Below are positions 32,281 through 51,643 of a DNA stretch of 64,000 nucleotides, in pieces. Location of the stretch: the sequence record PP534475.1; one strand, written 5' to 3'. This DNA is from Escherichia phage YJin-2024a. The notes under the pieces were generated by a model, which was not told the origin of the DNA, did no database searches, and worked only from the letters and a program-made list of their open reading frames with translations. Positions within the stretch are counted from its first letter, which is position 1, and each line of letters starts with the position of its first letter. The position numbers and the translations under genes were made by a program.

Positions 32281-32330
32281 TACATAACCCTTTGCTACCC
32301 ATCTACCATATCGGAATTATAAAGTGGTTA

Positions 32331-32452: not shown

Positions 32453-32482
32453 ATTTATATAAATTGATAAGGAAGAAATTTG

Positions 32483-33253: not shown

Positions 33254-34013
33254 ACTGAACTGGAACGTAGAAGGTGTAACCGAGTCTCTGAAAGCAAAAG
33301 CCACTGCTCTGGGTGTTGCTGTAATCTCTCAAGAACAAGTAGCTGCTATTGCTGCTGAACTGGCTACTGAAACTGGCAAAGATGTTACTGCTCGCTCTGT
33401 TGGCTCTAAACTGCGTAAAGAAGGTTTTGAAGTACAGAAAGCTAACGAAGTACAGAAATCCCCGTGGACTCCTGAGCAGGAAGCTGAACTGGTTGATTTC
33501 CTGAACGCTCATGCTGGTCAGTATACCTATGCTGAAATCGCTGCTGCTGTAGCTGGTGGTCAGTTCGGCGCTAAGCAGGTACAGGGTAAGATTCTGAGCC
33601 TGGAAATGACCGCTTCTGTTAAGCCAACTGAAAAAGCTGCTGCTGTTCGTTCCTTCACTCCGGATGAAGAAACTGATTTTGTTAATCAGGTTGTTGCTGG
33701 TGCTACTATTGAAGCTATCGCTGCTCACTTCGGTCGTAATATCAAGCAGATCCGTGGTAAAGCTCTGAGCCTGCTTCGTGAAGGTCGTATCGCTGCTATG
33801 CCGGTACAGGAAACTTCAAGTGCTAAAACTCGTGAAGATCTGTTAGAAGGTCTGGATCTGGTTAACATGACTGTTGCTGAGATCGCTGAGAAAACTGGTA
33901 AGTCTGAGCGCGGTGTTAAATCTATGCTGTCTCGTCGTGGTCTGGTTGCTAAGGACTATGATGGTGCCGCTAAGCGTGCTAAACTGGATGCAAAAGCTGC
34001 GGCTGCTGAATAA
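33246..34013 (+). CDS. abundant DNA-binding protein with three HTH-like repeats
   Basis: Three similar segments (YAEIAAAV..AKQVQGKILSLE / IEAIAAHFGRNIKQIRGKALSL / VAEIAEKTGKSERGVKSML); codon usage of a highly expressed gene. Confidence 0.45.
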   Translation: MSKLNWNVEGVTESLKAKATALGVAVISQEQVAAIAAELATETGKDVTARSVGSKLRKEGFEVQKANEVQKSPWTPEQEAELVDFLNAHAGQYTYAEIAAAVAGGQFGAKQVQGKILSLEMTASVKPTEKAAAVRSFTPDEETDFVNQVVAGATIEAIAAHFGRNIKQIRGKALSLLREGRIAAMPVQETSSAKTREDLLEGLDLVNMTVAEIAEKTGKSERGVKSMLSRRGLVAKDYDGAAKRAKLDAKAAAAE

Positions 34014-34030
34014 TCTGGTAAATTAAACCT

Positions 34031-34065
34031 AAGGGGAGGGGGCTATGCTCCTTCCCCTTTTTGCA
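34031..34065 (+). terminator. intrinsic terminator
   Basis: AAGGGGAGGGG...CTCCTTCCCCTT hairpin followed by TTTTGCATTT. Confidence 0.7.
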
Positions 34066-34095
34066 TTTAGAAGGCACGAAAGCGTGCAAAGGAGA

Positions 34096-35568
34096 ATGAC
34101 CTTGTTTAACGTGCAAGCTGTAGTGTTGAAGATGCTTCTAGCTTCTGAACAGAAGCAAATAGCATTGGAAACATTCTCAAAACTGCATAAAGATCATTTT
34201 AATGACGCTTTCTCCTCAATTTACCAAGCCGTCCAGAATTATTATAAAAAATATAACACAATGCCGTCCATTGACGCACTTATGCTTGAAGCTAATAGGA
34301 ACGCCCGCCTTTCTCAAGCTCTAGTCGTCTTAGCTAACACTCAAATTCCAGAAGTGAGCATGGAACAGGCACTTGAAGTCCTAGAAGCCGAATATACACA
34401 GGATTTATTCCTGAAACTTCTAGAAACAGACGTGCTTCAAGATTTAACAATGCTGGATCAGGGAGAAATTCTCAACCGAGTTGCCTCCCTTCACTTAAAA
34501 TTAGAAGAGAAAGTAACGAATACTGGAAAAGTATTCAACGCAGATAACATGCGTATTTTCCAGAGAGAAGAAGATACCAAACTGAACTTAATCGCTCTTG
34601 GTATTTGTAATGAGTTCGACGCTCAAATTGGTTTAGCTCGCACAGAAACGTTACTGCTTGGTGGTTGGCGTGGTACTGGTAAATCCATTATCTGTTCAAA
34701 CATACAGGTTCAGCAATATTTGAATGGAGATATTGCTCCATACTTCTCAATTGAGATGAAAGAACATGAAGTATTTAGACGTAATCTAGCCATGTTAGCA
34801 GGTGTATCAGCACTAGCAATGCGTAATAATACTCTAGAAGGTGCAGCTCTGTTGAGATTAGCCAGAACTAGAGCTAGAATGTTTAATGGTGGTGAAGAGC
34901 TTTTCGATAGCTTTGTTAAACAGTACACAATGGCTAAGATGAGTGATTTCTACGATATGGAGAGTAAGCTAATAGAAGGGTATGAGCTACATACTCCTAT
35001 GATTATTGTTTATGACCCTGAGCTGTCTATTACAACAGTTGACGTAGAACTAAATAAATTAGTTGCTAGATATGGTGATAAAGTTACAGTAGCTTTACTG
35101 GACTATATTAACCAAACCCGACTTCCAGACTCTAAAACCATTGATATGTATGACTGGAAAGAACAGATGGTTGTTAGCTCGTCTTTCAAATCTATCTGCC
35201 AGAAACATAACGTGGCTGGTGTAGCTCCTTACCAGATAGATCAAGATGGTAGAACACGTATGTCAAAGGGGATTCTTGATTCCGCTGACATGGCTGCTAA
35301 TCTTAATGCTGCAAAAGCTGATAATGGTCAAGGTGCTATTATGTTTGACTTCGTTAAGACTCGTTCTTCTGATAGCGTGAAGTTTATGCCTAAAATGAAC
35401 TGGGAAACTCTGCGAATGGATAACACTACCAACCTAGCAATGGAAGATATATCTCAAATGGAAGCTGAGTTCGTTATCCCTATTGAGAAGGATAAGCCGG
35501 CTCAACCTAAACGTGCTAAGAAAGACAAAGCTGAAAATTCAACAGGTGAACAGGCCAGCGATATATGA
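34096..35568 (+). CDS. RecA-fold replicative helicase (DnaB-like)
   Basis: Walker A GGWRGTGKS, Walker B VALLDY; start moved to MTLFNV (RBS AAGGAG) because the track start lies inside the terminator. Confidence 0.65.
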   Translation: MTLFNVQAVVLKMLLASEQKQIALETFSKLHKDHFNDAFSSIYQAVQNYYKKYNTMPSIDALMLEANRNARLSQALVVLANTQIPEVSMEQALEVLEAEYTQDLFLKLLETDVLQDLTMLDQGEILNRVASLHLKLEEKVTNTGKVFNADNMRIFQREEDTKLNLIALGICNEFDAQIGLARTETLLLGGWRGTGKSIICSNIQVQQYLNGDIAPYFSIEMKEHEVFRRNLAMLAGVSALAMRNNTLEGAALLRLARTRARMFNGGEELFDSFVKQYTMAKMSDFYDMESKLIEGYELHTPMIIVYDPELSITTVDVELNKLVARYGDKVTVALLDYINQTRLPDSKTIDMYDWKEQMVVSSSFKSICQKHNVAGVAPYQIDQDGRTRMSKGILDSADMAANLNAAKADNGQGAIMFDFVKTRSSDSVKFMPKMNWETLRMDNTTNLAMEDISQMEAEFVIPIEKDKPAQPKRAKKDKAENSTGEQASDI

Positions 35569-36455
35569 GTAGAATAACAGAACTACTTGATCTGAAAGGC
35601 ATTGAATATAAAGACACAGGTGGGGACATCCTCATCTGTTGTCTCAATCCAGATCATGACGATAAACACCCAAGTTTGCGTATTGATCCTGAAACAGGTA
35701 TTATGCACTGCTTGAGTTGTGGCTTCGGTAAAGGTATACCGAGCATTTACCATTATTTTAATGAGACTCAGTACCGACAGTCCCCAAGACTATCGCAGGT
35801 ACGTAAAAAGATTTCAGAGATTAGGAATGGATCTACGAATCTTGCAATTCCTGAATCTGCTTACCTTTTCGAAGGTGATTTCCGAGGTATAAGTTCTAAG
35901 ACCTTGAAGAAATATTTTGCTTTCCAACACCAAGCAGATTGGGAAGGCAGAATTGTATTCCCAATCACAGATGCTGTTGGACGCAATATCCTATTTTTGG
36001 GTCGTTCTATAAACAGTTCTGCCCCTCCTAAATACTTAGTAAAACCAAAACAAGTTTCACCACCGATTTTTCCTGTACGATATAATACTCCAGTTCTTAT
36101 TCTAGTTGAAGGTATCTTTGATATGCTGAACCTAGAGGATAATGGTATAGACTATGCTTCTTGCTGCTTTGGTACACATCAGTTCACTTCAGATAACATT
36201 GCAGATAAGTTCAGTCCTTATATTATTGCTGGTGTAAAAGTTGTTGTTATCTTACTAGATAATGATGCTTCTGGTAATAAAGCTGCACAAGCATTGGCTA
36301 AGCTAATTCGTACAAAAACGCGTTTAATACCTGTAGTTGCTAACTTTCTCCTGCCTGAAGGCAAAGATCCAGGTGATTTAAACAAAGATGAAATTGATAT
36401 GTTAGCAAAACGTATTGAAATTTTAATTGCTGAATCGCTTAAAGATTTGGTATAA
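35565..36455 (+). CDS. DnaG-type DNA primase
   Basis: CHC2 zinc finger CCLNPDHDDKHPSLRIDPETGIMHCLSCG plus Toprim segment VLILVEG...LLDNDASG. Confidence 0.8.
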   Translation: MSRITELLDLKGIEYKDTGGDILICCLNPDHDDKHPSLRIDPETGIMHCLSCGFGKGIPSIYHYFNETQYRQSPRLSQVRKKISEIRNGSTNLAIPESAYLFEGDFRGISSKTLKKYFAFQHQADWEGRIVFPITDAVGRNILFLGRSINSSAPPKYLVKPKQVSPPIFPVRYNTPVLILVEGIFDMLNLEDNGIDYASCCFGTHQFTSDNIADKFSPYIIAGVKVVVILLDNDASGNKAAQALAKLIRTKTRLIPVVANFLLPEGKDPGDLNKDEIDMLAKRIEILIAESLKDLV

Positions 36456-36517
36456 TATATTGGTAAGTTAGAGAAGAAACACTGAAGTTATACTTACTTA
36501 CCAAGAGGAGATTAAAT

Positions 36518-39085
36518 TTGAAAATCGCAGTAGTTGATAAAGCTCTAAATAACACTCGTTACGATAAACATTTCCAGCTATACGGCGAGGAAGTTGATGT
36601 ATTCCATATGTGTAACGAGAAGTTATCTGGTCGTTTGCTTAAAAAGCACATTACTATTGGAACACCAGAAAACCCATTTGATCCGAATGATTACGATTTT
36701 GTTATACTAGTAGGTGCTGAACCTTTTCTGTATTTCGCAGGTAAGAAAGGCATTGGTGACTATACTGGTAAACGTGTAGAGTATAATGGATATGCTAACT
36801 GGATTGCGAGTATTAGCCCAGCCCAGTTACACTTTAAGCCTGAAATGAAACCAGTTTTCGATGCAACAGTAGAGAATATCCACGATATTATCAATGGTCG
36901 TGAGAAGATTGCAAAAGCTGGTGATTACCGTCCCATTACTGACCCTGACGAGGCGGAAGAATATATCAAGATGGTGTATAATATGGTTATCGGACCTGTC
37001 GCATTCGACTCCGAAACCTCAGCACTATACTGTCGAGATGGTTATCTGCTTGGTGTTTCTATATCTCACCAAGAATATCAGGGTGTATATATCGATTCTG
37101 ATTGTCTCACAGAGGTTGCGGTATATTATCTCCAGAAAATTCTAGATAGTGAAAACCACACTATTGTTTTTCACAACTTGAAGTTTGATATGCACTTTTA
37201 TAAGTACCATCTGGGACTTACTTTTGATAAAGCACATAAAGAACGCAGGCTCCATGATACAATGTTGCAGCATTATGTTCTAGATGAGCGTCGTGGTACT
37301 CATGGCTTGAAATCTCTAGCAATGAAGTATACCGATATGGGTGACTATGACTTTGAACTAGATAAGTTCAAGGAGGATTACTGCAAAGCATATAAAATCA
37401 AGAAAGAAGATTTCACATATGATTTAATTCCGTTTGATATTATGTGGCCTTACGCTGCAAAAGATACCGATGCCACTATACGTTTGCACAACTTCTTCTT
37501 ACCAAAAATTGAGAAGAATGAAAAACTTTGCAGTCTGTATTATGATGTTCTAATGCCTGGTTGTGTATTTCTCCAGCGTGTTGAGGATCGTGGTGTACCA
37601 ATTTCTATTGATCGCTTGAAAGAAGCTCAGTATCAGTTAACTCATAATCTGAATAAAGCCCGTGAGAAGCTGTATACTTATCCAGAAGTCGTTCAGCTAG
37701 AGAAAGATCAGAACGAAGCGTTTAACCCAAACTCTGTTAAACAACTCCGTGTTCTTCTGTTTGATTATGTTGGCTTAACTCCAACAGGTAAATTGACGGA
37801 TACTGGAGCAGACTCTACAGATGCAGAAGCTCTGAACGAATTGTCTACGCAGCATCCAATTGCTAAGACCCTACTAGAGATTCGTAAGCTGACCAAGCTG
37901 ATCTCTACTTACGTTGAGAAGATTCTTCTAAGCATTGATGCTGATGGTTGCATTCGTACTGGCTTCCATGAGCATATGACTACTTCTGGTCGCCTGAGTT
38001 CTTCTGGTAAACTGAACCTGCAGCAGCTACCTCGTGATGAATCTATTATCAAGGGTTGTGTAGTAGCTCCTCCAGGGTATCGTGTAATCGCATGGGACTT
38101 AACAACTGCGGAAGTTTATTATGCTGCTGTTCTATCTGGTGATAGAAATATGCAACAAGTATTTATCAACATGAGAAATGAACCAGATAAATACCCTGAC
38201 TTCCACTCTAACATCGCACACATGGTATTTAAGCTCCAATGCGAACCTCGTGATGTTAAAAAGTTATTCCCAGCCCTGCGTCAAGCAGCTAAAGCAATCA
38301 CCTTTGGTATTTTGTATGGTTCTGGCCCGGCTAAAGTAGCTCATTCTGTTAATGAGGCTCTTTTGGAACAAGCTGCTAAGACAGGCGAACCGTTTGTAGA
38401 GTGTACTGTTGCAGATGCTAAAGAGTACATTGAAACTTACTTCGGTCAGTTCCCACAGCTTAAGCGTTGGATTGATAAGTGCCACGACCAGATCAAGAAC
38501 CATGGGTTTATCTATAGTCACTTTGGTCGTAAACGTCGTCTGCATAATATCCACTCCGAAGACCGTGGTGTTCAGGGTGAAGAAATTCGTTCTGGATTTA
38601 ACGCAATCATTCAGTCTGCTTCTTCTGATAGTCTCCTTTTAGGGGCTGTAGACGCAGATAATGAGATCATTTCTCTTGGCCTAGAACAAGAGATGAAGAT
38701 TGTTATGCTGGTTCACGACTCCGTGGTTGCTATTGTTCGTGAGGATTTGATCGACCAGTACAATGAAATCCTGATTCGTAATATCCAGAAAGACCGTGGT
38801 ATCAGTATTCCTGGCTGTCCGATTGGTATTGATTCAGATTCTGAAGCTGGAGGTTCTCGTGACTATTCTTGTGGTAAGATGAAGAAACAGCACCCATCAA
38901 TCGCTTGTATTGATGATGATGAATATACTCGTTATGTCAAGGGTGTATTACTTGACGCAGAGTTCGAGTATAAGAAACTAGCTGCAATGGATAAAGAGCA
39001 TCCAGATCATAGCAAATACAAGGATGATAAGTTTATTGCTATATGTAAAGATTTGGATAACGTGAGAAGGATTCTCGGTGCTTGA
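36518..39085 (+). CDS. family A DNA polymerase with 3'-5' exonuclease domain
   Basis: Exo motif FDSETSALY; polymerase motifs KAITFGILYGSG and LVHDS; TTG start with AAGAGGAG RBS; 855 aa. Confidence 0.9.
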   Translation: MKIAVVDKALNNTRYDKHFQLYGEEVDVFHMCNEKLSGRLLKKHITIGTPENPFDPNDYDFVILVGAEPFLYFAGKKGIGDYTGKRVEYNGYANWIASISPAQLHFKPEMKPVFDATVENIHDIINGREKIAKAGDYRPITDPDEAEEYIKMVYNMVIGPVAFDSETSALYCRDGYLLGVSISHQEYQGVYIDSDCLTEVAVYYLQKILDSENHTIVFHNLKFDMHFYKYHLGLTFDKAHKERRLHDTMLQHYVLDERRGTHGLKSLAMKYTDMGDYDFELDKFKEDYCKAYKIKKEDFTYDLIPFDIMWPYAAKDTDATIRLHNFFLPKIEKNEKLCSLYYDVLMPGCVFLQRVEDRGVPISIDRLKEAQYQLTHNLNKAREKLYTYPEVVQLEKDQNEAFNPNSVKQLRVLLFDYVGLTPTGKLTDTGADSTDAEALNELSTQHPIAKTLLEIRKLTKLISTYVEKILLSIDADGCIRTGFHEHMTTSGRLSSSGKLNLQQLPRDESIIKGCVVAPPGYRVIAWDLTTAEVYYAAVLSGDRNMQQVFINMRNEPDKYPDFHSNIAHMVFKLQCEPRDVKKLFPALRQAAKAITFGILYGSGPAKVAHSVNEALLEQAAKTGEPFVECTVADAKEYIETYFGQFPQLKRWIDKCHDQIKNHGFIYSHFGRKRRLHNIHSEDRGVQGEEIRSGFNAIIQSASSDSLLLGAVDADNEIISLGLEQEMKIVMLVHDSVVAIVREDLIDQYNEILIRNIQKDRGISIPGCPIGIDSDSEAGGSRDYSCGKMKKQHPSIACIDDDEYTRYVKGVLLDAEFEYKKLAAMDKEHPDHSKYKDDKFIAICKDLDNVRRILGA

Positions 39086-39575
39086 TTTCAAATTGCCCGT
39101 ATATGCTTTACGGGCGTTTGTATCAATTGAGCAAGAAGGTGATTATTCCGTAATTACAACAAGATATAATAAATATGTGCTAGATAACAGGAAGTTGCCT
39201 GGCACTTTTTCTCAACGTAGGCTTATTCTATTTGAGAAACGGAAAGAATTACCATACAAGCTCTATCCTATTAGAGGTAGAATATCCATGTTATCTCAAT
39301 TAGTTGGGTCAAAGCGTAACCAATTCATAGATTCTGATGGAAATCTTATTAATTGGAAGAAAACTACGTTTTATGATGTTGTCACCTCTAAAGTTTTGCA
39401 TTCAGCTAGAATTTATAACGGAAAATACCAATGCTATGTAGCTAAAGTTCCATATCCATTTGTATTATCCTATGTTCCAGCTTATATAAGTTATATTCTG
39501 GTAAATAATAGCCCTGTTATTTATCAAGTCCATCAAGAGGAGCCTGAAATTCCTAGACTTAGAATAAAATTATGA
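39078..39575 (+). CDS. hypothetical protein
   Basis: 165-aa ORF overlapping both neighbours; start uncertain. Confidence 0.35.
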   Translation: MLDFKLPVYALRAFVSIEQEGDYSVITTRYNKYVLDNRKLPGTFSQRRLILFEKRKELPYKLYPIRGRISMLSQLVGSKRNQFIDSDGNLINWKKTTFYDVVTSKVLHSARIYNGKYQCYVAKVPYPFVLSYVPAYISYILVNNSPVIYQVHQEEPEIPRLRIKL

Positions 39576-40924
39576 AGGTTGTTATATCTAATAAAGCCTA
39601 TTTCAAGCCCGATGATGAACTTTGGGATTATTGTAGTAAGCAAACCACTTATCACATTGAGACAATGACTAGTAAATACCCTATTATGTATAAGAATAGT
39701 GGTGTTGTTGCTAAAGAGATTAAGTGGATTCCTATCACGCGTCTGGATCTACTAGATGCTAAAGGAGTAAAATACGAATTAGTTGATAAACGCACATTAG
39801 CTCCGGTAGATATACCAAAACCTACGTTCAAGCTGCGCGAAGAAGATCAGCTTCCAATATACGAAGAATGCGATGATACCTGTATTATTAATGGTAAGCC
39901 TGGATTTGGCAAAACTATCCTAGCCCTGGCACTTGCGTATAAATTTGGCCAGAAAACTCTGGTAATTTGTACCAACACATCTATTCGTGAAATGTGGGCG
40001 GCAGAAGTTCGTAAATGGTTTGGGTTTGAACCGGGTATCATAGGTTCTGGGAAATACAATATTGATCCACCAATTGTGGTCAGTAATATTCAAACAGTGA
40101 ATAAACATGCGAATAATCTGTCTAAAGTATTCGGTACTGTTATAGTTGATGAAGTTCACCATTGTGTGGCCACAACTTTCACTAACTTCCTAGAAATATC
40201 ATGTGCTCGCTATAAGATTGGACTATCTGGAACATTAAAACGTAAAGATGGTCTACAAGTTATGTTCAAAGATTTCTTTGGATATAAGATCTTTAGCCCA
40301 CCAGTTAATAATACTGTTGCACCTACAATCCATAGGTACTCCGTACCTGTTGAGTTATCAGGGAACCAAAACGTACCCTGGGCATTACGTGCTAACGATG
40401 TGTATAATCATCCTGAATATCGAGAGACTATTATAAACCTGGCACATTTATACGTGAATATGGGGCATAAAGTACTCATTGTAAGTGATAGAACAGAGTT
40501 AATCCAAACAGTGCTAGAAGCTCTTGCACAGCGTGGTGTTACAACATATGAAATTATAGGGGCAACCCACTTAGATGACCGATTAAAAATTCAGGAAGAT
40601 ATAGCAAAAGGTGGACCTTGTGTACTTGCAGCAGCTCAAAGTATCTTCTCTGAAGGTATTTCTCTTAACGAGTTGTCTTGTTTAATAATGGGGAGTCTCA
40701 TTAATAATGAATCTCTCATCGAACAGCTTGCAGGACGTGTTCAACGTATTGTCAATGGTAAACTCGACCCTATTGTTGTAGATCTAATTATGAAAGGTGG
40801 CACTGGACTAAGACAGGCTTCTGGACGTATGGCAGTATATCGTAACAACGGGTGGAAAACTATTACTATGACTCCGGAGAAAGCAGTTCAATTAGCTAAA
40901 ATTGCATTTGGCAACAGCTCATAA
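39572..40924 (+). CDS. SF2 DNA helicase (T5 D10-like)
   Basis: Walker A GKPGFGKT, DEAH-type VIVDEVHH. Confidence 0.8.
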   Translation: MKVVISNKAYFKPDDELWDYCSKQTTYHIETMTSKYPIMYKNSGVVAKEIKWIPITRLDLLDAKGVKYELVDKRTLAPVDIPKPTFKLREEDQLPIYEECDDTCIINGKPGFGKTILALALAYKFGQKTLVICTNTSIREMWAAEVRKWFGFEPGIIGSGKYNIDPPIVVSNIQTVNKHANNLSKVFGTVIVDEVHHCVATTFTNFLEISCARYKIGLSGTLKRKDGLQVMFKDFFGYKIFSPPVNNTVAPTIHRYSVPVELSGNQNVPWALRANDVYNHPEYRETIINLAHLYVNMGHKVLIVSDRTELIQTVLEALAQRGVTTYEIIGATHLDDRLKIQEDIAKGGPCVLAAAQSIFSEGISLNELSCLIMGSLINNESLIEQLAGRVQRIVNGKLDPIVVDLIMKGGTGLRQASGRMAVYRNNGWKTITMTPEKAVQLAKIAFGNSS

Positions 40925-41144
40925 ATGATGTATAATATATACATAAATTTGAGAGAGAAAGTTTCGGATTGATAAGAAAGTCCGAAGCAGAAAAATAAAA
41001 ATTTTAGTTGCTAAATTCTCTCGAAATCTAGTATAATATATACATAAATTCGAGGAGAAAACAAAAATTAAATTCTTCGATTATGAAAAGCTATACTTAC
41101 TAGCTAGAGGAAATTCCGACCTAATTATTAAGCTATTCAAAAGA

Positions 41145-41429
41145 ATGCTTACAGAGCCTGATGCTCACCAATTATTGGTCGGTTCCTCATTCATTTTGAA
41201 TGAATCAACAATAGTTGATAATCCAAATAAATTGTCTAATAGACAACTGGCAGAATATCTAGGAATTTTAAGTCTACGAAATTATGCCGAATACAAGTTT
41301 ACAAACGATCCTAGTTTGGACATACAATATGTTCCAGTATGGATACCACGTTTAGTAATCGACACTAACCCACTAATCGCAATTAACAAATCGAAATTAA
41401 TCTTTAAAGAGGAAATAAAATATGGCTAA
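41145..41429 (+). CDS. hypothetical protein
   Basis: 94-aa ORF with weak RBS. Confidence 0.3.
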   Translation: MLTEPDAHQLLVGSSFILNESTIVDNPNKLSNRQLAEYLGILSLRNYAEYKFTNDPSLDIQYVPVWIPRLVIDTNPLIAINKSKLIFKEEIKYG

Positions 41430-42195
41430 GTCTTGGGGCGAAACTACTGGCGGTTCTAACGATAAAATCGAATTCCTGAAGTTCAACAACGGTATCACTC
41501 GTGTTCGTATCGTTTCTGGTGTTCTTCCACGTTATGTCTATTGGCTGACTAATAAAGAGGGTAACGCAGCTCCTTTCGAATGTCTCCGTTTTAACCGTGA
41601 CAAAGAGAGCTTTGTTCGTGGTAAAGCTGATCCAGTTCATGAGATGGGCTTCTTCGAGAAAGAGCTGGATAAAGAGGGTAATCGTGTTCCGCTGAAACCG
41701 AAGAAAAACTATATCGCTTTTGTTATCGACCGTTCTGATAACAAACTGAAAGTAATGGAAGTCAAGGCTACTATTCTGAAAGGCATCCAGTCTATCATGA
41801 AGCAGTTGAATCTGGCAACTCCGTTTGATATTGATATTTCTATCGAGAAAAAAGGTAAAGGTTTCGATACTGAGTATGATGTACAGCAGATTGCTGCTAT
41901 GCAGTTCCAGATTAAGCTGCAAGATCCTAACAGTGCGGAATCTAAGCAATATGCTGCGGATGTAGATCTGATCGGTGAAGCTATGTGTGACGAAGATGGC
42001 GACATCATTAAGTTCGAAAAAGTTCCTTCTCTGGAACAAACCTATCCGGTTCCTACCTATGAAGAGCAGAAAGAAGCAATTCAAGCCTTCATGGAGGGTC
42101 GTGAGAATAAAGATGATGATGCCAAATCTGGTAATAGCAATGTAGGCTCCCAGAAAGGTATTGACACAGAAGCTGCAAGCGATCTGGACGACTAA
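41422..42195 (+). CDS. gp32-like ssDNA-binding protein with acidic C-terminal tail
   Basis: RVRIVSGVLPR...NAAPFECLRF resembles T4 gp32 AVIRFLPSK...QAPFAIL; C-terminus ...EAASDLDD; high-expression codon usage. Confidence 0.5.
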   Translation: MAKSWGETTGGSNDKIEFLKFNNGITRVRIVSGVLPRYVYWLTNKEGNAAPFECLRFNRDKESFVRGKADPVHEMGFFEKELDKEGNRVPLKPKKNYIAFVIDRSDNKLKVMEVKATILKGIQSIMKQLNLATPFDIDISIEKKGKGFDTEYDVQQIAAMQFQIKLQDPNSAESKQYAADVDLIGEAMCDEDGDIIKFEKVPSLEQTYPVPTYEEQKEAIQAFMEGRENKDDDAKSGNSNVGSQKGIDTEAASDLDD

Positions 42196-42201
42196 TAAAT
42201 A

Positions 42202-42226
42202 GAGGGGCTTCGGCCCCTTTCTTTTT
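42202..42226 (+). terminator. UUCG-tetraloop intrinsic terminator
   Basis: GGGGC-TTCG-GCCCC followed by TTTCTTTTT. Confidence 0.7.
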
Positions 42227-42231
42227 AACCA

Positions 42232-43209
42232 ATGAGAATATTATTTAGTGCTGATCATCATATCAAACTAGGACAAGATAAAGTTCCAAAGGAATGGCAG
42301 AAGCGTCGCTTCCTGATGCTAGGAGAACGGTTAAATGATATATTCCATAATCATAACTGTGATCTCCATATTGCTGGTGGTGATATACTTGATGTTGCCG
42401 ACCCGTCGTCAGAAGAAATAGAACTGCTTGAACAGTTCATGTCAAGACTTGACCATCCAGGCAAAATCTTTACTGGAAATCATGAAATGTTAACTAAAAC
42501 CATTTCATGCCTATATCATTATGCAGGAGTTATTAATAAAGTAACGAGTGGTAAGTGGGAAGTAATTACCAAACCATATCGTTCCCCTGAATTTGATATT
42601 GTTCCGTATGATGAGATCCATAAATCCAAATGGAAACCGTCTGAATCAAAACTATGTTTCACGCATGTTCGTGGTGAAATCCCTCCACATGTAAAACCAG
42701 AAATTGATCTAACTAAGTATAACTGTTATGATACTGTAATTGCTGGCGATTTACATTCTTATACTAATAGCCAGACTATCGGATCTACTAGACTTCTCTA
42801 CCCAGGGTCTCCATTAACTACATCGTTCCATAGAGAACGCACAAAAGGTACAAATGGTTGCTTTATCATTGATACCGACACATTAAAAGTAGAATGGATT
42901 GAACTAGGGGATTTACCACAACTGATTCGTAAAACAATCGGAGCCGGTGAAGAGATGGAACCTAGTGATTATGATCGTGTAGTCTATGAAGTTACTGGTG
43001 ACGTTGTTCAACTAAAGTCTATCAAAGACTCTGATTTATTAGATAAGAAGATTAACCATCGAGTTACTAAAGACGCTAAGTTAAATCTTGTTGATCTTGA
43101 TATGTTAGGTGAACTTGAACTTTACTTCCGTGAAGTCGAGAAGCTATCTCAAGGCGACATTGATAGAATCTTGGCTAGAGCTGCGAAATATGTCAAAGAT
43201 TACAATTAA
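42232..43209 (+). CDS. SbcD/Mre11-like nuclease
   Basis: Calcineurin-like phosphoesterase motifs DHH, GGDILD, GNHE. Confidence 0.8.
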   Translation: MRILFSADHHIKLGQDKVPKEWQKRRFLMLGERLNDIFHNHNCDLHIAGGDILDVADPSSEEIELLEQFMSRLDHPGKIFTGNHEMLTKTISCLYHYAGVINKVTSGKWEVITKPYRSPEFDIVPYDEIHKSKWKPSESKLCFTHVRGEIPPHVKPEIDLTKYNCYDTVIAGDLHSYTNSQTIGSTRLLYPGSPLTTSFHRERTKGTNGCFIIDTDTLKVEWIELGDLPQLIRKTIGAGEEMEPSDYDRVVYEVTGDVVQLKSIKDSDLLDKKINHRVTKDAKLNLVDLDMLGELELYFREVEKLSQGDIDRILARAAKYVKDYN

Positions 43210-45028
43210 GACACTAAAATTTAGTAACGTTATGTCTTACGGTAAGGACATCGTAATTCATTTCGATAAGAATCCAGTTACTCAACTAATTGGTGGCAAT
43301 GGACTAGGGAAATCTACAATTGCTACGGTTATTGAAGAACTCTTTTATAATAAGAACTCACGTGGTATTAAGAAGGATGCTCTGTTCTCCTGGTCTTCTC
43401 CGAAAAAAGAATACGATATGCACGCTTACTTCTCGAAAGATGAAGATGAGTACGAACTGCATAAAGTAGTTAAATCAACTGCTAAAGTAACTCTTATTAA
43501 GAATGGAGAAGATATTAGTGGGCATACGGCAACCCAAACATACAAGATGATTGAAGAGATTATGGGTGGTGACTTCCAAACATTCACCAAACTAATCTAT
43601 CAATCAGTGGGTTCCAATCTAGACTTTCTAAAAGCAACAGATGCAACACGTAAGGCTTTTCTTGTTAACTTGTTCAATCAAGAACAGTATAAAGAAATGT
43701 CAGAAACTATTAAGGCTGATCGTAAAGAAATAGCAAATACCTTAAATAATTTGCAGGGCCAAATGGCTGTAATTACGAAAATCCTTAATGGAAAGAATAC
43801 TCTGGGAACCTTACAAGAACCAGTAGAAGTGCCTGAGTTTGACGAAGAACCCTTAGCACAAGAACTTACTGAATCGAAAATTAAGGCGGCATTAGCCAAG
43901 TCTCAAGAGGCTAATATTACTAAATTGCGTAATTTGGACAAAGCTGTACAAGTTGCCGAACAATCTTTCGAGCCTTTCAAAAATTTGCCCGCGCCCACTG
44001 ACCAAAACGAAGAGATCTCGAGTGTTACGCGTGACCTAACGATTGTGACCTCACGTGCGAGCGAAGTTAAGAAACGTTATCAGAAGTTCAAGCAAGAGGC
44101 TTCAAATACTGAATGTCCTACTTGTGGTACTCATCTGGATACAACTGCTGCTCAAAAAGCAATGGATATGGCTAGAACAGAATATGATCCTCTGTTCAAA
44201 GAGAAGCAATCTCTTGAAGCTAAGTTAGAACAGTTGAAGAAAGAACAACTTGAGTACGTTGCGTATACTAGAGCAAAGGATGCTTTGGATAAAGCAGTGG
44301 TAGCTAGAGACGAGTTCAAAAATTCAATGAGTGATGCTTCTTTTGAAGAACTCAATGTGCAAATCCTACAAGTGCAAATCCGACAATTAGAACAGGAAAT
44401 AGCTGATGGCCGTTCTAAGGTTGCAATTGCCAAAGAGCATAATGCAAATGTTGAATTAGCCAATGCAAAATATAAAGCGAAACTAGAACAGATTGAGAAA
44501 GCTGAGGCAGAAATGTCTGAGATTACTTCCAAACTGGATGGAGTATCAGAAGCTGTTGCTGATCTCGATATTCTGATCGCCGCATTGAAAAATCTGGTAG
44601 GGTATAAACTAGAACATAGTGTGAAAGTATTTGAAGAACTAATTAATAAATACCTTTCTATTATGACTGGTGGTAAGTTCGCACTTGGATTTGAACTTGA
44701 TGAAACGAAATTACAAGTAGTAATCTTCAATGATGGAAACCGTACTAGTATGGAGAACTGCTCTACTGGTCAGCAAAGTCGAATCAACCTAGCAACTCTG
44801 TTAGCTATTCGAATGCTACTAACATCTATTAGTAAAGTTAATATTAATCTTCTATTCCTTGATGAAGTAATTAGCTTTATTGATACGAAAGGACTTGACA
44901 CTCTTGTTGAATTATTAAATGAGGAAGAAAGTCTAAATTCTATCATTGTTTCTCATGGGCATACGCATCCATTAGCTCATAAGATTACTGTCAAAAAAGA
45001 TGCAGAAGGATTTTCCTACTTAGAATAA
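43190..45028 (+). CDS. SbcC/Rad50-like ATPase
   Basis: Walker A GGNGLGKST, long coiled coil, CPTCG zinc hook, C-terminal LLFLDE; start taken at MSKITIK. Confidence 0.8.
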   Translation: MSKITIKTLKFSNVMSYGKDIVIHFDKNPVTQLIGGNGLGKSTIATVIEELFYNKNSRGIKKDALFSWSSPKKEYDMHAYFSKDEDEYELHKVVKSTAKVTLIKNGEDISGHTATQTYKMIEEIMGGDFQTFTKLIYQSVGSNLDFLKATDATRKAFLVNLFNQEQYKEMSETIKADRKEIANTLNNLQGQMAVITKILNGKNTLGTLQEPVEVPEFDEEPLAQELTESKIKAALAKSQEANITKLRNLDKAVQVAEQSFEPFKNLPAPTDQNEEISSVTRDLTIVTSRASEVKKRYQKFKQEASNTECPTCGTHLDTTAAQKAMDMARTEYDPLFKEKQSLEAKLEQLKKEQLEYVAYTRAKDALDKAVVARDEFKNSMSDASFEELNVQILQVQIRQLEQEIADGRSKVAIAKEHNANVELANAKYKAKLEQIEKAEAEMSEITSKLDGVSEAVADLDILIAALKNLVGYKLEHSVKVFEELINKYLSIMTGGKFALGFELDETKLQVVIFNDGNRTSMENCSTGQQSRINLATLLAIRMLLTSISKVNINLLFLDEVISFIDTKGLDTLVELLNEEESLNSIIVSHGHTHPLAHKITVKKDAEGFSYLE

Positions 45029-45031
45029 AAC

Positions 45032-45514
45032 ATGGCCGTAGATAGTAGAGAGAAAGGTAAACGTGGTGAGTATCAAGTAAGAGATATTTTACGTGAACGT
45101 ACAGGTCTTGAGTGGGAACGTGTTCCTGGCTCTGGTGCTTTTGGCCAGAGCCATGGACTGAAGGGTGACATCTACCTTCCACCACAAAGCGGACACATTA
45201 GTAAATACTGCTTCGAAGTTAAGTGGTATAAAGATGATGCATTATCAAGTAATTTATTTAATGTTGGTGAATCTACTCTAGAGAAGTGGTGGCAGCAATG
45301 CTCACGTGAAGGTGAGCAGATGAACTCCAAACCTGCATTAATATTCAAAAAAGACAGAGGACAGTGGTTAATAGCTTTGGATAGCTCAGACCCGATGGTT
45401 GACAACTTAATGAGTCGTACCCATATGGTGTTAAATAAGAAAGACATGGAAATCGTAATTGGTTTATTTGAGCCGTGGCTACATCATGCATCTGTTGAGG
45501 ACTTAATTAAATAA
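45032..45514 (+). CDS. PD-(D/E)xK nuclease, Hjc-like Holliday-junction resolvase
   Basis: KGKRGEYQVRDIL..G....VPGSG.....KGDIY.....CFEVKW follows the Hjc pattern. Confidence 0.45.
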   Translation: MAVDSREKGKRGEYQVRDILRERTGLEWERVPGSGAFGQSHGLKGDIYLPPQSGHISKYCFEVKWYKDDALSSNLFNVGESTLEKWWQQCSREGEQMNSKPALIFKKDRGQWLIALDSSDPMVDNLMSRTHMVLNKKDMEIVIGLFEPWLHHASVEDLIK

Positions 45515-46389
45515 TGAGTAAATCCTGGGGAAAATTTATTGAAGAAGAGGAAGCTGAAATGGCTTCCCGTCGTAACCTAATGATTGTTGATGGAACTAAC
45601 TTAGGCTTTCGCTTCAAACATAACAATAGTAAAAAACCATTTGCCTCAAGTTATGTTTCCACTATTCAGTCTCTTGCAAAATCTTATTCTGCTAGAACTA
45701 CAATAGTTTTAGGGGATAAAGGGAAGTCTGCATTCCGCTTAGAGCATTTACCTGAGTATAAGGGTAATCGAGATGAGAAATACTCACAGCGTACGGAAGA
45801 GGAGAAAGCGTTAGATGAGCAGTTCTTCGAGTATTTGAAAGATGCTTTCGAATTATGTGAAACTACATTCCCAACTTTCACTATTCGTGGTGTAGAAGCA
45901 GATGATATGGCGGCTTATATTGTTAAGCTCATCGGACATCTGTATGATCACGTTTGGTTGATTTCTACTGATGGTGACTGGGATACTTTATTAACTGATA
46001 AAGTTTCTCGATTCTCTTTCACAACACGTCGTGAATACCATCTTCGTGATATGTATGAACATCATAATGTTGACGATGTAGAGCAGTTTATATCTCTAAA
46101 AGCAATTATGGGTGATTTAGGGGATAATATCCGCGGTGTTGAAGGTATTGGGGCGAAACGCGGGTATAATATTATTCGTGAATTTGGTAATGTTCTGGAT
46201 ATTATTGATCAGCTTCCCTTGCCTGGAAAACAGAAATATATACAGAATTTAAATGCTTCGGAAGAATTGCTTTATAGAAACCTAATTTTGGTTGATTTAC
46301 CTACCTACTGTGTGGATGCTATTGCTGCTGTAGGTCAAGATGTATTAGATAAGTTTACAAAAGATATTTTGGAGATTGCAGAACAATGA
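45514..46389 (+). CDS. 5'-3' flap endonuclease (T5 D15-type)
   Basis: N-terminal MIVDGTNLGFRF; 291 aa. Confidence 0.9.
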   Translation: MSKSWGKFIEEEEAEMASRRNLMIVDGTNLGFRFKHNNSKKPFASSYVSTIQSLAKSYSARTTIVLGDKGKSAFRLEHLPEYKGNRDEKYSQRTEEEKALDEQFFEYLKDAFELCETTFPTFTIRGVEADDMAAYIVKLIGHLYDHVWLISTDGDWDTLLTDKVSRFSFTTRREYHLRDMYEHHNVDDVEQFISLKAIMGDLGDNIRGVEGIGAKRGYNIIREFGNVLDIIDQLPLPGKQKYIQNLNASEELLYRNLILVDLPTYCVDAIAAVGQDVLDKFTKDILEIAEQ

Positions 46390-46853: not shown

Positions 46854-46890
46854 AACCCCAATGGATTTTGTCCATTGGGGTTTTATTTTA
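46854..46890. terminator. bidirectional terminator between early and late modules
   Basis: 12-bp hairpin AACCCCAATGGA/TCCATTGGGGTT with U-tracts on both strands, between convergent dut and tail-fibre genes. Confidence 0.75.
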
Positions 46891-48618
46891 CTTAGCTTTC
46901 AATATATTTATTTCTTCTTGTAATTCTTCAACTTTATTAATAAGCCACTTAACTGCAGCAACGGAATCAAGCAACATAACATTTTCATCAATGGCTAACG
47001 TTTTCTCTCTTCCGGGATCTCCGTATTCCCGTACATATTGGGGATCTATTTTCTGTAAATCCTGGGCTATAAAACCGCGCCTCACCTGTTCATTCTCATC
47101 ATTTTTATAGATGTATGATTTATAGGGCATCTGCTTAATATTACCTATTGCAATATTAGTATCAATGGACTGAATATTTTTCTTTAATCTTTCATCACAA
47201 ATCGGAGATTTTGAAAAAATATAGTTTAGCGAACCATCGTTATACCCATATTGAAGATCAAATGAATTATCAATAAACGTAAACACGGTAATACTCTTGC
47301 CGTTACCTTGTTCACCATCTGGTAGTGCCCAATCCCTTACTTGAGCAATTGCAGCTCTAGGATAACTATTACTAGAATCAGGATAAGATATTTGTCCAAA
47401 ACAAGCAAAAGATCTATAGTTCTTTAGTGAATTACCACTACCACCCCCAAGAATTGGGACGAAGGCACTATATGCTGTGTTATTCCACCAGTCCGGCGCG
47501 CGATAAGCGCAGTGACTATAGGAACTCCCTGTACCGACTCCGGACGGCCTATGGGATGTTGAAAACTGACCATTACTGTCATACTTAATGCTTACAGGGA
47601 TCCCTCTATCATCTGTTATAGTTAAGCTAACACCCCATGCGCCATTAATTACTTTACTTGATTTTAGTTCCGCTGTTACATTTGCACTGGGCGATTTATA
47701 TTCAGATTTAACACTACCACCAGAAACAACAACACCTGAATCGGGGGTTGTTTTATCAGCGTTAATAACACTCCATGATGTATTTGCTGCAACGAAACCA
47801 CCGGACGCCCGGATTACCCATACACCGGTGAAGTTATTAGGGGTAATCTCTTCGGTATTACCATAACGCCCATACACACTAGATTGACGAGAAGCATCAA
47901 AGTTCCATCTACGTGGATAATTCGTTACTGCAGCATTTTCTACAATGGCGTTTAGGTTAGCATATTTTTGGAATGCCTCGGACGGATATCCAGCACCACT
48001 TGCACCATCATTTTCAATAATTGATGTAGAAGTTACGGTTCTAAAGTAGGCAGTTAAGTTAGGAGCAGAAGACTCATTCGCTCTACCGAGGTTAGAAGTT
48101 ACCCCACCATCACCACGTCCAAAAAGACCCTTAAAGGAGCCAGATTGAACACCATTTCGATCAGGAACACGGAAGGTTGTTTGACCATCACCAACTGAGT
48201 ATTTGCCTCTCTCATGTGGATCTGCTAACCATTCTGCATCACTGATAGGACTTAACATTTGAGCATATGCCCAAAGCTCCGGCCAGTCAGCACGGTTTAG
48301 CAATTGACCATCGGAAACCACCTCGTAAGGTTGAATATACGCACGACTATCACGCAGGTGGAAATCGCCAACCCCGTAATTCATAACGCCATTCATTGTA
48401 GGGCCAACTGTGCCAGTATTAATCTTATTCTCTACCCAACGCTTAGTAACCGCATCATAGTCACTAACAGGGTCTCCCGCAAGGGGAGTAGACCCAATAG
48501 GACGCACATTTAACCATGCTGCTGCACGATCTGCTAAGTCGCTTAAGTTATTATTCTTATTAAGCGACTCATTTTTAAGTTTTGTAATATCCGTAGGAAT
48601 TACTGTTTTAGTTACCAT
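46888..48618 (-). CDS. L-shaped tail fibre distal protein with C-terminal S74 intramolecular-chaperone domain
   Basis: C-terminal GFIAQDLQKIDPQYV...LAIDENVMLLDSVAAVKWLINKVEELQEEINILK resembles the autoproteolytic chaperone domain. Confidence 0.7.
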   Translation of the reverse strand: MVTKTVIPTDITKLKNESLNKNNNLSDLADRAAAWLNVRPIGSTPLAGDPVSDYDAVTKRWVENKINTGTVGPTMNGVMNYGVGDFHLRDSRAYIQPYEVVSDGQLLNRADWPELWAYAQMLSPISDAEWLADPHERGKYSVGDGQTTFRVPDRNGVQSGSFKGLFGRGDGGVTSNLGRANESSAPNLTAYFRTVTSTSIIENDGASGAGYPSEAFQKYANLNAIVENAAVTNYPRRWNFDASRQSSVYGRYGNTEEITPNNFTGVWVIRASGGFVAANTSWSVINADKTTPDSGVVVSGGSVKSEYKSPSANVTAELKSSKVINGAWGVSLTITDDRGIPVSIKYDSNGQFSTSHRPSGVGTGSSYSHCAYRAPDWWNNTAYSAFVPILGGGSGNSLKNYRSFACFGQISYPDSSNSYPRAAIAQVRDWALPDGEQGNGKSITVFTFIDNSFDLQYGYNDGSLNYIFSKSPICDERLKKNIQSIDTNIAIGNIKQMPYKSYIYKNDENEQVRRGFIAQDLQKIDPQYVREYGDPGREKTLAIDENVMLLDSVAAVKWLINKVEELQEEINILKAK

Positions 48619-48627: not shown

Positions 48628-48903
48628 TTATGCCCACTCTCTAAGAGGCTGTGCAAGAATAACACTATGATCACTGTATTGAGTGAAGTCAAATGAATCA
48701 TCAATAACCCTTACGTTCACATAATACCCCTCATTCTGGGTATATATGGGCTCATCCTCTGAGCCACCAGTTTGTGTATAGGTATATCCGATAACATCAA
48801 GCATTATTTGATTTTGCAAAGTTTCATTGCCTTCCCAATCAATAACCACAAGGAAGTCTTCAAATGCTTTCTTGTCCTTAAATTTCATAGTTAAGTCTTT
48901 CAT
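48628..48903 (-). CDS. small hypothetical protein between tail-fibre genes
   Basis: 91-aa ORF. Confidence 0.4.
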   Translation of the reverse strand: MKDLTMKFKDKKAFEDFLVVIDWEGNETLQNQIMLDVIGYTYTQTGGSEDEPIYTQNEGYYVNVRVIDDSFDFTQYSDHSVILAQPLREWA

Positions 48904-51221
48904 ACAGATTCCTTCATTTGACGATCTGTTAATTCTTTATGCCAGATTCTAAAGTTACGAATATGACCGAATAAACTACGCTCTCCGTTAGCAAGGTTGT
49001 AGCCAATACGTATTGTGTGTGCACCATTCACGCTAGACCATGACGATTTAGTTTGCGTTGAAAATATACCATTTGAAACGACCTTGAAATTTCCTTCTGT
49101 ATTTCTTACAAATCCTGCAATTAGTTTTCTTTCTGAATCCACAGCCGGAAATGAAACAATACTACCAAACTGAACGTAAGGTCTTCCATTTCCAGTAGCA
49201 GATCTAAACCCGAATACCAATGCATCATCAGCAGTCTTAAAGCCACTGATATCAAATATTCTTGGCGCTAAGTTAGGAGCAACATCCCAATTTTTGTTAA
49301 CCTCAACAAGGCAAGAAACAGGAGCATTATAAAGGTTATTTTTTATTGGTATAGTAACCAGATCGCTCGCCCTTGTGGCTGGCGTTCCTTCTGTAATAAT
49401 AAAAGATGATGCGCAAGAGCCAACTTCAATTTGAGGCATTGAAATATCAGCGGTGCTTGTGTCGTCAAAAATAGCGCCACCAGTTTTGTTGGCCATATTA
49501 ATAACGCCTCGAACATCTGTAGATGTATCGGTTATCTTATACACAACCTCTACAACTATCCAATCACCATCTTTTGATACATTTTTTACGATAATATTGT
49601 TTGCATCACTACCAGAGGTCGATATTCCCATGTTATCAAGGTCAATAAATGCAACTGCTGACGTCGTTAATGGATCTCCCTTGTCAAATCTAGCCCCGAT
49701 CCGCAAATTCACACCCTTTGCACGAAATGATATTACCACATGATCACCGCTAACCACTGGTATCTTATTTGGTGTTAAGCCTGCAATTATCGTGTACGCA
49801 CCGGTTTGGCCCATATAATCACCAGGCGTGAACGTTGCATATTTAAAACCGCGATTATCAGTTTTTGTCTCACTTCTGCTCAGACCTGGATTTGGATTCC
49901 ATGATTCCGGTGTATTTGAGTTTATAAAATAATTTGTCCTCTGACCTTCAATTAGCAAACCTTCTTTTTCAAATCGCGGTTCGTCAACTTCAGCAACGGT
50001 AAATACTCCTGATTTATTAATGTATGTTGCACCTGTCGCGCGTTTAAAGTTAACAACCTTATCAGATGGCATGGTGATCACGTCATCATCAACAGTTATT
50101 TGTTTATAGCCTGGTGCAAATCCTGCTAGCATGTCCAGTGAATCATTGAATGGAATCCACACATCAGGGAAAGACTGAACTTCTGTGGTATTGCTAATAG
50201 CAACTTCTACTTTATCCACCTCAGCCTGGGCACGATCAGCTTCGGTTTTTGAGCGATCGGCTTCTGTCTTAGCAGTTTTAGCACTATTAGCAGCATTAGT
50301 AGCTTGTTTTCCCGCTTCAGTAGCAGATGCAGCAGCATTAGTTGCAGAAGTAGCCGCTTGATCTTTTAAAGCTGTTGTCTCCGTTACAGCACTATTCTTG
50401 ATGGTTTGAGTATCAGATTTTAATGCCTCAACATCAGATTTTAGACCTTGAATAGTGGTTACTGATTGACTAGCTGAAGTTGCAGAACTAGCAGCATTTG
50501 TTTCACTAGCCTTAGCTTTAGTTTCGCTAGACTTTGCATTAGTTTCTGATGTTTTTGCCTTAGTCTCGGATACTTTAGCAGCAGCAGCAGAGGCAGCCGC
50601 TTGTGCAGCAAATGCTTCCGCTTCATCCCTAAAACCTTTAGAATCGGCAGCAGACGCAGCAGATTCAGCAGCTCTAGTTTCACTAGTCTTAGCATTAGTT
50701 TCACTAATTTTTACAGCAGCAGCGGAAGCAGCAGCATTAGTCTCACTAATTTTAGCATTAGTCTCGGAGGCTTTAGCTTTGGTTTCACTAGACTTTGCAT
50801 TGGTTTCTGATGCTTTTGCATTAGTCTCTGAGGTTTTAGCCTTAGTTTCACTAGCTTTTGCATTAGTCTCAGATACTTTAGCTGCTGCGGCTGATTCTGC
50901 AGATCTATCCGCTGATGCAGCAGATTGAGTAGCAGATGTAGCGGACTGAGTGGCAGAGGCTTCAGAAGCTCCAGCAGATATAGCAGCTTCTTGTTCAGAA
51001 TCCTTAGCGTTAAGTTCCGAAGTCTTAGCAGCTATCTCAGAATCTTTTGCAGCTGCAGCAGACTTAGCTGCTGCCTCAATAGACGATACTAGCTCACTTG
51101 CAGTAATAGAACTAATAGAGTTACCAAGAGTTACTGTATATCTAGGAAATTTACTAGCAGTAGCTTTAGTATCATCAATATTTAGTATCTGTTGTACAAT
51201 AATCTTAGTAGTTACTGCCAT
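48900..51221 (-). CDS. L-shaped tail fibre proximal protein with tandem heptad repeats
   Basis: About 18 copies of SETNAKA/SETKAKA near the N-terminus followed by a beta-rich domain. Confidence 0.65.
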   Translation of the reverse strand: MAVTTKIIVQQILNIDDTKATASKFPRYTVTLGNSISSITASELVSSIEAAAKSAAAAKDSEIAAKTSELNAKDSEQEAAISAGASEASATQSATSATQSAASADRSAESAAAAKVSETNAKASETKAKTSETNAKASETNAKSSETKAKASETNAKISETNAAASAAAVKISETNAKTSETRAAESAASAADSKGFRDEAEAFAAQAAASAAAAKVSETKAKTSETNAKSSETKAKASETNAASSATSASQSVTTIQGLKSDVEALKSDTQTIKNSAVTETTALKDQAATSATNAAASATEAGKQATNAANSAKTAKTEADRSKTEADRAQAEVDKVEVAISNTTEVQSFPDVWIPFNDSLDMLAGFAPGYKQITVDDDVITMPSDKVVNFKRATGATYINKSGVFTVAEVDEPRFEKEGLLIEGQRTNYFINSNTPESWNPNPGLSRSETKTDNRGFKYATFTPGDYMGQTGAYTIIAGLTPNKIPVVSGDHVVISFRAKGVNLRIGARFDKGDPLTTSAVAFIDLDNMGISTSGSDANNIIVKNVSKDGDWIVVEVVYKITDTSTDVRGVINMANKTGGAIFDDTSTADISMPQIEVGSCASSFIITEGTPATRASDLVTIPIKNNLYNAPVSCLVEVNKNWDVAPNLAPRIFDISGFKTADDALVFGFRSATGNGRPYVQFGSIVSFPAVDSERKLIAGFVRNTEGNFKVVSNGIFSTQTKSSWSSVNGAHTIRIGYNLANGERSLFGHIRNFRIWHKELTDRQMKESV
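50486..50878 (-). repeat. tandem 21-bp (heptad-coding) repeat array inside the tail-fibre gene
   Basis: Direct repeats visible at nucleotide level, coding residues approx 116-245. Confidence 0.6.
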
Positions 51222-51643
51222 TATTTAGTTACCCCATCACTGATAAATACTTTACCCTCCATTATGCGAAAGGAGCTAATTGCAGATCCTATAACATCTC
51301 TAGTCATGATTATATCATAGTATCCAGCAAATCGCTGACGAGGATTATATTTATCTCTATCTTTAGACGCTTTAGCCCCTATATTTTCCACAGATTCTAC
51401 GGGTAAACTTATAGCTACAGCCCCCTGAGCAGCATCAATAATATTAGTAGTAAAGGATGCTAATATCTCCGCATTCTCATCTAGGCTATTTTTTACAGTA
51501 CCTCTTAGAGAATATCCGGTTAAGTTAACAGGAGTATTTGTAGGCGGATAAGTACTATCATCAACGTCTAAGAACTGCATCATTAGACCATATGGTACAT
51601 TTTCGTCTATTACTAAATCTATAACTCTATTTTCAGTACTCAT
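51221..51643 (-). CDS. tail collar/Ig-like protein (T5 p132-like)
   Basis: 140 aa, position between tail-fibre and pb4-like genes. Confidence 0.5.

Follow-up and report, generated by a model that had tools for sequence, protein, structure and literature searches.

A SETxAxx heptad array as a predicted length-variable spacer in the L-shaped tail fibre of a T5-like phage

The window, a 64,000-nt stretch of DNA, is that of a T5-like siphophage (Demerecviridae, Markadamsvirinae). Its interval 30000–46000 is 97.9% identical to Salmonella phage vB_SalS_ABTNLsp4, and at least 80% of this interval is covered by 422 phage records. The heptad array lies in a fibre gene that is located immediately downstream of the collar gene ltfC/p132 (Table 1), the product of which falls into phrog_34807, annotated as 'collar tail protein for L-shaped tail fibre attachment'. 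The 773-residue fibre protein matches the PHROG tail and tail-fibre families phrog_1419, phrog_5481 and phrog_24369, and its residues 1–110 align with residues 1–110 of DT57C LtfA (PDB 8HQZ chain d; E 1.4e-34, phmmer against PDB). An hmmscan of the whole protein, repeat region included, against Pfam-A gave no family at E up to 0.1, and the exact 773-residue protein had no record in the assembly collection. A conserved ORF of 91 residues separates the fibre gene from the LtfB-like gene, and the two ORFs upstream (690 and 949 residues) are pb4- and pb3-like, judged by size and position alone. The same gene order is found in HMD-P4, SIA3lw, FGS017, T5 and the Logan contig L023.

In phage DT57C, a locus of this kind comprises two genes, ltfA and ltfB, whose products build a branched L-shaped tail fibre (LTF; PMC4728585). 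By its sequence, the 773-residue protein is the LtfA of such a two-gene locus, with the attachment of LtfB being predicted. The anchor match, the collar neighbour and the LtfB-like gene together justify the label 'L-shaped tail fibre gene'; the first-pass annotation had placed the array in a gene of this type, and the DT57C LtfA match and the LtfC neighbour bear this out. Two plus-strand ORFs that overlie the array region (50601..50810 and 50950..51228) were rejected as artefacts of low-complexity sequence opposite a well-supported gene.

Table 1. Coordinates of the fibre locus and of the domains and repeat blocks of the 773-residue fibre protein (aa, residue numbers in that protein).
Feature	Coordinates	Strand	Evidence
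LtfB-like distal fibre protein, 576 aa, with C-terminal intramolecular chaperone domain	46888..48618	-	Pfam PF13884 Peptidase_S74, E 2.4e-14; phrog_6921 tail fibre
ltfA-type L-shaped tail fibre gene, 773 aa, contains the array	48900..51221	-	ORF list, PHROG, PDB 8HQZ
LtfC/p132 collar protein gene, fibre attachment point	51221..51643	-	Pfam PF23926 LtfC, E 1.5e-14; phrog_34807
N-terminal anchoring domain, aa 1-40, predicted by homology to insert under the LtfC collar	51102..51221	-	AF2 and homology
Predicted coiled-coil (proximal arm) domain, aa 41-345, heptad periodicity throughout	50187..51101	-	AF2, register, homologues
Block 1: seven SETxAxx heptads, aa 117-165, with 63-nt (three-heptad) super-period	50727..50873	-	TRF period 63, score 174
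Degenerate in-phase heptad SAAAVKI, aa 166-172	50706..50726	-	
Block 2: two heptads, SETNAKT and SETRAAE, aa 173-186	50664..50705	-	
Spacer, 31 aa, aa 187-217, with conserved SKGFRDEAEAF motif and predicted helix break	50571..50663	-	
Block 3: four heptads, aa 218-245	50487..50570	-	

In translation, 13 units on the minus strand fit the pattern SET[NKR]A[KA]x, and they are arranged in three blocks (Table 1). An earlier count of about 18 corresponds to the 393-bp span divided by 21, and is too high because that span also includes the SAAAVKI heptad and the 31-residue non-SET spacer. The spacer equals four heptads plus three residues (4 × 7 + 3), and the heptad register therefore shifts by +3 across it; its SKGFRDEAEAF motif is kept in orthologues and is also present in DT57C LtfA. 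The heptad-coding repeat itself is real, with a periodicity far above chance: 72 in-phase SE...SE pairs are observed, whereas 2000 shuffles gave 1.6 on average and never more than 16, and the autocorrelation of residue identity is 0.53 at lags 7, 14 and 21 (lag-7 range 0.43–0.53) versus about 0.1 at other lags. As protein, the heptad units are 75% identical, with strong conservation at the heptad surface positions Glu2, Thr3 and Lys6.

The 21-nt units had been described as near-identical, a description that does not hold for the DNA. Their mean pairwise identity is 66% (8–20 of 21 positions) and that of adjacent units is 65%; at third codon positions identity falls to 43%, Ser is encoded in five different ways within the array, and the longest exact direct repeat measures 17 nt. 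Tandem Repeats Finder (TRF) reports only two separate arrays, one of 2.6 copies (81% matches) and the other of 7.1 copies (68% matches). Classical slipped-strand mispairing, which requires perfect or near-perfect units, was rejected with units diverged this far (66% identity; 68–81% matches in TRF). Such synonymous divergence between units marks the array of this genome as old and stable. The TRF score is higher for a period of 63 nt than for one of 21 nt, which suggests ancient growth by duplications of three heptads. In addition, block 3 probably arose long ago as a partial copy of block 1, since both follow the heptad SAAAAKV and the units at residues 138 and 225 share 20 of their 21 nucleotides.

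The array is predicted to be embedded in a much longer helix. In the AlphaFold2 (AF2) model, which is a monomer computed from a shallow alignment (pTM 0.28), residues 1–39 have no regular structure (pLDDT below 50), whereas helices extend over residues 41–194 and 200–345 with pLDDT of about 80–88, array included. The sole break (residues 195–199, pLDDT below 50) falls within the conserved SKGFRDEAE motif. The register with Ser at position 1 is unbroken from residue 47 to residue 200, and the array is thus one portion, the most regular, of a much longer heptad-periodic segment; in the model, the SETxAxx repeats would form the most regular stretch of a helix of about 305 residues (41–345). Ser, Thr and Ala are unusual residues for a coiled-coil core. 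Judged from invariance only, the invariant small residues Ser1 and Ala5 most likely make up the core here. With an α-helical rise of about 0.15 nm per residue, the length would come to about 1 nm for one heptad, about 13.5 nm for all 13 and about 45 nm for the complete helix.

Homologous fibres suggest how this helix may be used. In T5 pb1, residues 1–40 are the anchoring domain, residues 41–218 a coiled coil and residues 219–1263 the fibre, and in cryo-EM images the coiled coil is straight, with a variable kink after it (PMC12750041). DT57C LtfA likewise has an N-terminal anchoring domain, followed by a helix that starts at Thr40, and its three chains form a coiled coil that projects radially from the collar (PMC10713586). 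By homology, residues 41–345 probably form a parallel homotrimeric coiled coil that constitutes the proximal arm; the trimer is predicted from the DT57C cryo-EM structure and the T5 images, as the AF2 model describes one chain and draws on a shallow alignment. The array segment lies outside the resolved parts of the DT57C, T5 and RAD2 structures.

The protein encoded in the window shares with T5 pb1 and DT57C LtfA a homologous anchor, the position after the collar gene, a helix that begins at about residue 40, and the proximal-arm role (PMC12750041, PMC10713586). It shares with T5 pb1, in addition, heptads of the SETNA type with Ser in the same register. However, the T5 helix comprises 178 residues rather than about 305, and it carries about seven SETNA-type heptads (six by pattern search), compared with 13 canonical ones here and none in DT57C. 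Unlike in these two proteins, the present helix has a predicted interruption at the conserved GFRDEAE break, and it leads to another distal domain (with a match of the GTA-spike-fibre type), accompanied by a separate LtfB.

Outside the T5-like phages, the heptad motif, as SE[TND][NKA]AK[ATS], occurs in Klebsiella phage fibres and depolymerases, among them RAD2 DpK2 and the tail fibre of the Webervirus Sushi, which has about 17 consecutive heptads; over block 1, the DNA identity to Klebsiella phage fibres is 70–75%. Residues 121–177 of RAD2 DpK2 (PDB 7LZJ) align with block 3, and the N-terminal domain of that protein is an extended triple helical bundle, in which the residues before 191 are not modelled (PMC8552709). 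These phages belong to an unrelated family (Drexlerviridae), and their proteins have another N-terminal anchor and, distally, a β-helix depolymerase; the likeness is confined to the shaft module and may stem from exchange of that module or from convergence. T4 fibritin (gpwac) offers a further comparison: it is a trimeric fibre of heptad segments, the number and length of which differ among related phages, but it ends in a C-terminal foldon and acts as a whisker and assembly chaperone, unlike the array described here.

Within the sublineage to which the window belongs, the array does not change in length. Four independent relatives, HMD-P4, SIA3lw, FGS017 and the contig L023 (about 90–97% nucleotide identity), have arrays of identical length with no indel; HMD-P4 is 97.2% identical over the array region, and L023 matches at 373 of 387 nucleotides across the array, with no gap in the first 1350 nt. 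Orthologous units are 96–97% identical, versus 66% for paralogous units, and it follows from this difference that no recent homogenisation has taken place in this lineage.

Across the wider group, the array does vary. The orthologue set was drawn from IMG/VR loci and a BLAST search of phage records; a homologue search with residues 1–344 was dominated by low-complexity heptad matches, none of those listed exceeding 601 residues, and a search with residues 1–116 returned four fragments of about 100 residues and nothing else. We aligned 14 T5-like genes (the window, HMD-P4, SIA3lw, FGS017 and ten IMG/VR loci) and measured the array from residue 110 to the conserved SATSASQS motif, which was possible in 13 of the 14, as L005 lacks the motif. 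In these 13 genes the array spans 34 to 139 residues, and the compared T5-like phages have between 0 and about 14 heptads. The gaps in the aligned genes are whole heptads, plus a three-residue ESA indel. The array of L004 is shorter by 101 residues (14 heptads and a three-residue shift), such that block 3 alone remains, and DT57C LtfA has no SET array. In the BLAST search of phage records, full- and near-full-span matches differ from the query by 0, −9, −30, −63, −84 or −126 nt, i.e., by multiples of 21 nt with or without a 9-nt indel, the exception being a difference of +45 nt in three records. The expectation of length change among related phages is thus borne out, mostly in steps of whole heptads, and the refuting condition named in the first-pass annotation, an invariant copy number, receives a split answer: copy number is constant in close isolates but differs within the family at large.

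The variation extends to the arm as a whole. In a comparison of P0003–P0005, P0011, P0012 and P0021 with EC100, L003, L006 and L010, all LtfA proteins with the same anchor and C-terminal domain type, the start of the C-terminal domain ranges from residue 110 to residue 386, and the arm accordingly spans roughly 70 to 345 residues with both ends unchanged in type; P0003–P0005 and P0011 have none or one of the heptads. In the T5-like phages compared, no other part of LtfA/pb1 varies as much in length as the coiled-coil arm, and the array is probably an evolutionarily length-variable spacer rather than a hypermutable switch.

Traces of recombination are visible in several relatives. In the two flanks, L006 and L008 agree at 99.7% and 99.2% of positions, and yet they differ by 93 nt in the array, owing to deletions of 30 nt and 63 nt in L008 relative to L006. 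The 30-nt deletion (10 residues) does not correspond to whole heptads, and the register is therefore not always preserved. Block 3 of L008 holds a 49-nt exact copy of its own block 1, a conversion tract, and rokbiter, L007 and L009 contain exact in-register duplications of 45–58 nt at offsets of 21 or 42 nt. In-frame gain or loss of whole units, together with conversion tracts, thus occurs among the homologues, as in length-polymorphic coiled-coil repeat proteins that evolve by intragenic recombination. The first-pass annotation had considered the array prone to both slippage and recombination; L006/L008 and the 49-nt copy uphold the recombinational part, whereas the slipped-strand part does not apply here, given a longest exact repeat of 17 nt.

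We consider it highly probable that the array is a rigid spacer in a trimeric coiled-coil proximal arm, the length of which evolves by in-frame gain and loss of units and by module exchange. Three LtfA chains, running in parallel, would form the coiled coil of this arm and extend outwards from the collar of the tail, with the array as a rigid spacer within it, a function suggested by the architecture. The array would have grown as one to three heptads at a time were duplicated in frame, and its expansion and contraction across T5-like phages would result from recombination between units together with modular exchange. The literature that we searched contains no mutant or length-swap data on the array, and an effect of the array on host range is hypothetical; in the literature that we read, host specificity in the T5-like fibre family maps to the distal receptor-binding regions (PMC4728585, PMC11990801).

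A different reading would make the array a hypermutable contingency locus, in which frequent changes of copy number within a lysate, through slipped-strand mispairing or unequal recombination, would generate fibre-length variants and thereby a more diverse host range. As in simple-sequence contingency loci, a tandem repeat lies in a host-interaction gene and differs in copy number between strains, here among T5-like phages; the 93-nt difference between L006 and L008, with flanks about 99% identical, and the long exact in-register duplications (45–58 nt) in some relatives point in the same direction. However, the repeat in the window is degenerate (66% between units, 65% between adjacent ones, no exact repeat longer than 17 nt), and it is stable among close relatives, with zero indels in the four at about 90–97% nucleotide identity. 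The far greater similarity of orthologous than of paralogous units argues against ongoing homogenisation, the 21-nt units are in frame and therefore afford no on/off switching by frameshift, and specificity, in the literature that we read, maps to the distal receptor-binding regions (PMC4728585), all of which leaves this reading very improbable. Nearly as improbable, in our assessment, is a multivalent binding surface for LtfB, an assembly chaperone or a host glycan, with copy number setting the valency. The conserved surface positions Glu2, Thr3 and Lys6 would suit such a role, as would the recurrence of the motif in unrelated fibres (Klebsiella phage Sushi, T7-type and BppU_N-type) and the need for an LtfB attachment site on LtfA in a branched LTF (PMC4728585). 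Yet the region proposed to bind LtfB in DT57C, a segment similar to phiEco32 gp14, lies beyond the coiled coil in a protein entirely without a SET array; P0003–P0005 and P0011 retain the anchor and the C-terminal domain type with at most one heptad; and the motif is also found in single-chain fibres that have no LtfB, such as T5 pb1.

It is harder still to believe that the segment is no coiled coil at all, but a β-structured or disordered low-complexity linker in which the heptads are incidental. Its composition, rich in Ala, Ser and Thr with few classical hydrophobic core residues, and the lack of a Pfam match would be compatible with such a linker, whereas the continuous AF2 helix (pLDDT 80–88), the strict seven-residue periodicity and the counterparts in DT57C, T5 and RAD2 DpK2, which are trimeric helical bundles or straight coiled coils, contradict it. 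The rigid-spacer reading admits an extension that we regard as speculative and rather unlikely, in which the arm is an adjustable molecular ruler: the number of heptads and an adjacent module of 25 residues would be selected so that the reach of the fibre suits either the host's O-antigen or capsule layer, by its thickness, or the central fibre, by its length, and the GFRDEAE break with its +3 shift would be a built-in hinge or a docking point for a partner. Recombinational length change would then offer an adaptive route to new hosts, independent of swaps of the receptor-binding domain. Array length may be tuned adaptively or may drift neutrally.

The heptad module is promiscuous among fibres. 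Residues 1–344 match 2479 proteins at E of 1e-5 or better, including fibres with T7-type (PF03906) and BppU_N (PF10651) anchors, and some of the matches end in Gp10_C or fibre-repeat distal parts. Literature searches with the motif string SETNAK and its variants returned nothing relevant, and those on heptad copy-number variation in tail fibres returned no paper documenting polymorphism of this array. Polymorphism in heptad count is nevertheless to be expected of fibres of this kind. The array is part of the coiled-coil arm already described for T5 and DT57C, and near-identical copies of it are known in sequenced Salmonella phages. The natural series of arm lengths is a resource for phage engineers who ask whether length affects adsorption. 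Where duplications are fresh, short-read assemblies of the array region may collapse. We note that some GenBank records, e.g., that of rokbiter, already carry a repeat_region annotation at the position of the array.

Nucleotides 300–720 of ltfA, the gene for the L-shaped tail fibre protein, were compared between two T5-like genomes from IMG/VR, L006 and L008. Their flanks are ~99% identical, and the two are separated by two deletions, one of 30 nt (10 aa, out of register) and the other of 63 nt (three heptads). In addition, 49 nt of block 1 of the heptad array have been copied exactly over block 3 in L008. The overwriting of block 3 is direct evidence that the array has undergone intragenic recombination or gene conversion.

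The adjacent ~25-aa module, with the consensus LKxDVExLKxDTQxIKxSAVxETTA, also varies in length, and is present once in the window phage, as against two or three times in the relatives L003, L006, L010, L011 and EC100 (L016). The module region contains an exact direct repeat of 73 nt in EC100 and one of 114 nt in L011; the duplication of the module is thus more recent than that of the heptads. In the LTF proteins of phages EPS7 and S.Kent 1-2-1 (aa ~56–330), a whole coiled-coil block, KDSEIAAK...SETNAK...GFRDEAE, is present twice, the copies lying ~135 residues apart. In these EPS7-type fibres it is a large segment of the arm that has been duplicated, not the heptad number that has changed.

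Features of the tail fibre region, with positions in the window
Feature	Window position	Strand	Basis
Small conserved ORF, 91 aa	48628-48903	minus	phrog_1361, E 4.5e-31
Distal part of LtfA	49368-49955 (aa 423-618)	minus	NCBIfam NF048003 GTA_spike_fiber match
Mosaic breakpoint in ltfA	~49870 (gene nt ~1350)	minus	Identity drop vs L023
Second length-variable module	50364-50447 (LtfA aa 259-286)	minus	~25-aa unit, just downstream of heptad array
SKGFRDEAE motif interrupting LtfA coiled coil	50616-50642 (aa 194-202)	minus	AF2 + heptad register

At the SKGFRDEAE motif the heptad register shifts by +3, and the helix is broken within it at residues 195–199 (pLDDT <50) in the AlphaFold2 (AF2) monomer prediction. 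The motif is conserved in most of the aligned orthologues but missing from L004; it is also present in DT57C LtfA, and EPS7-type fibres carry it two or three times. It may act as a hinge or provide a docking point.

An array of the same SETxAKx heptads is found in unrelated tail fibres of Drexlerviridae, namely those of Klebsiella phage Sushi and of other Webervirus members. The Sushi array (aa 143–254) comprises ~17 units in a four-heptad super-repeat, and window block 1 shares 69–77% DNA identity with the Webervirus/Sushi arrays, which suggests either that phage families have exchanged the shaft module or that convergence has been strong.

In the distal part of LtfA the NF048003 match has an E value of 7.6e-18, the family being described as 'phage head spike fiber domain-containing protein'; Pfam gave no match in this region. 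L023 (Logan SRR22877988), which is the closest contig, falls from ~96% to ~60% identity at the breakpoint, and the HMD-P4 megablast match stops near residue 435; the anchor plus coiled coil therefore have a history separate from that of the distal domain. The 91-aa ORF, flanked by ltfA and ltfB, occupies the equivalent position in HMD-P4, SIA3lw, FGS017 and L023.
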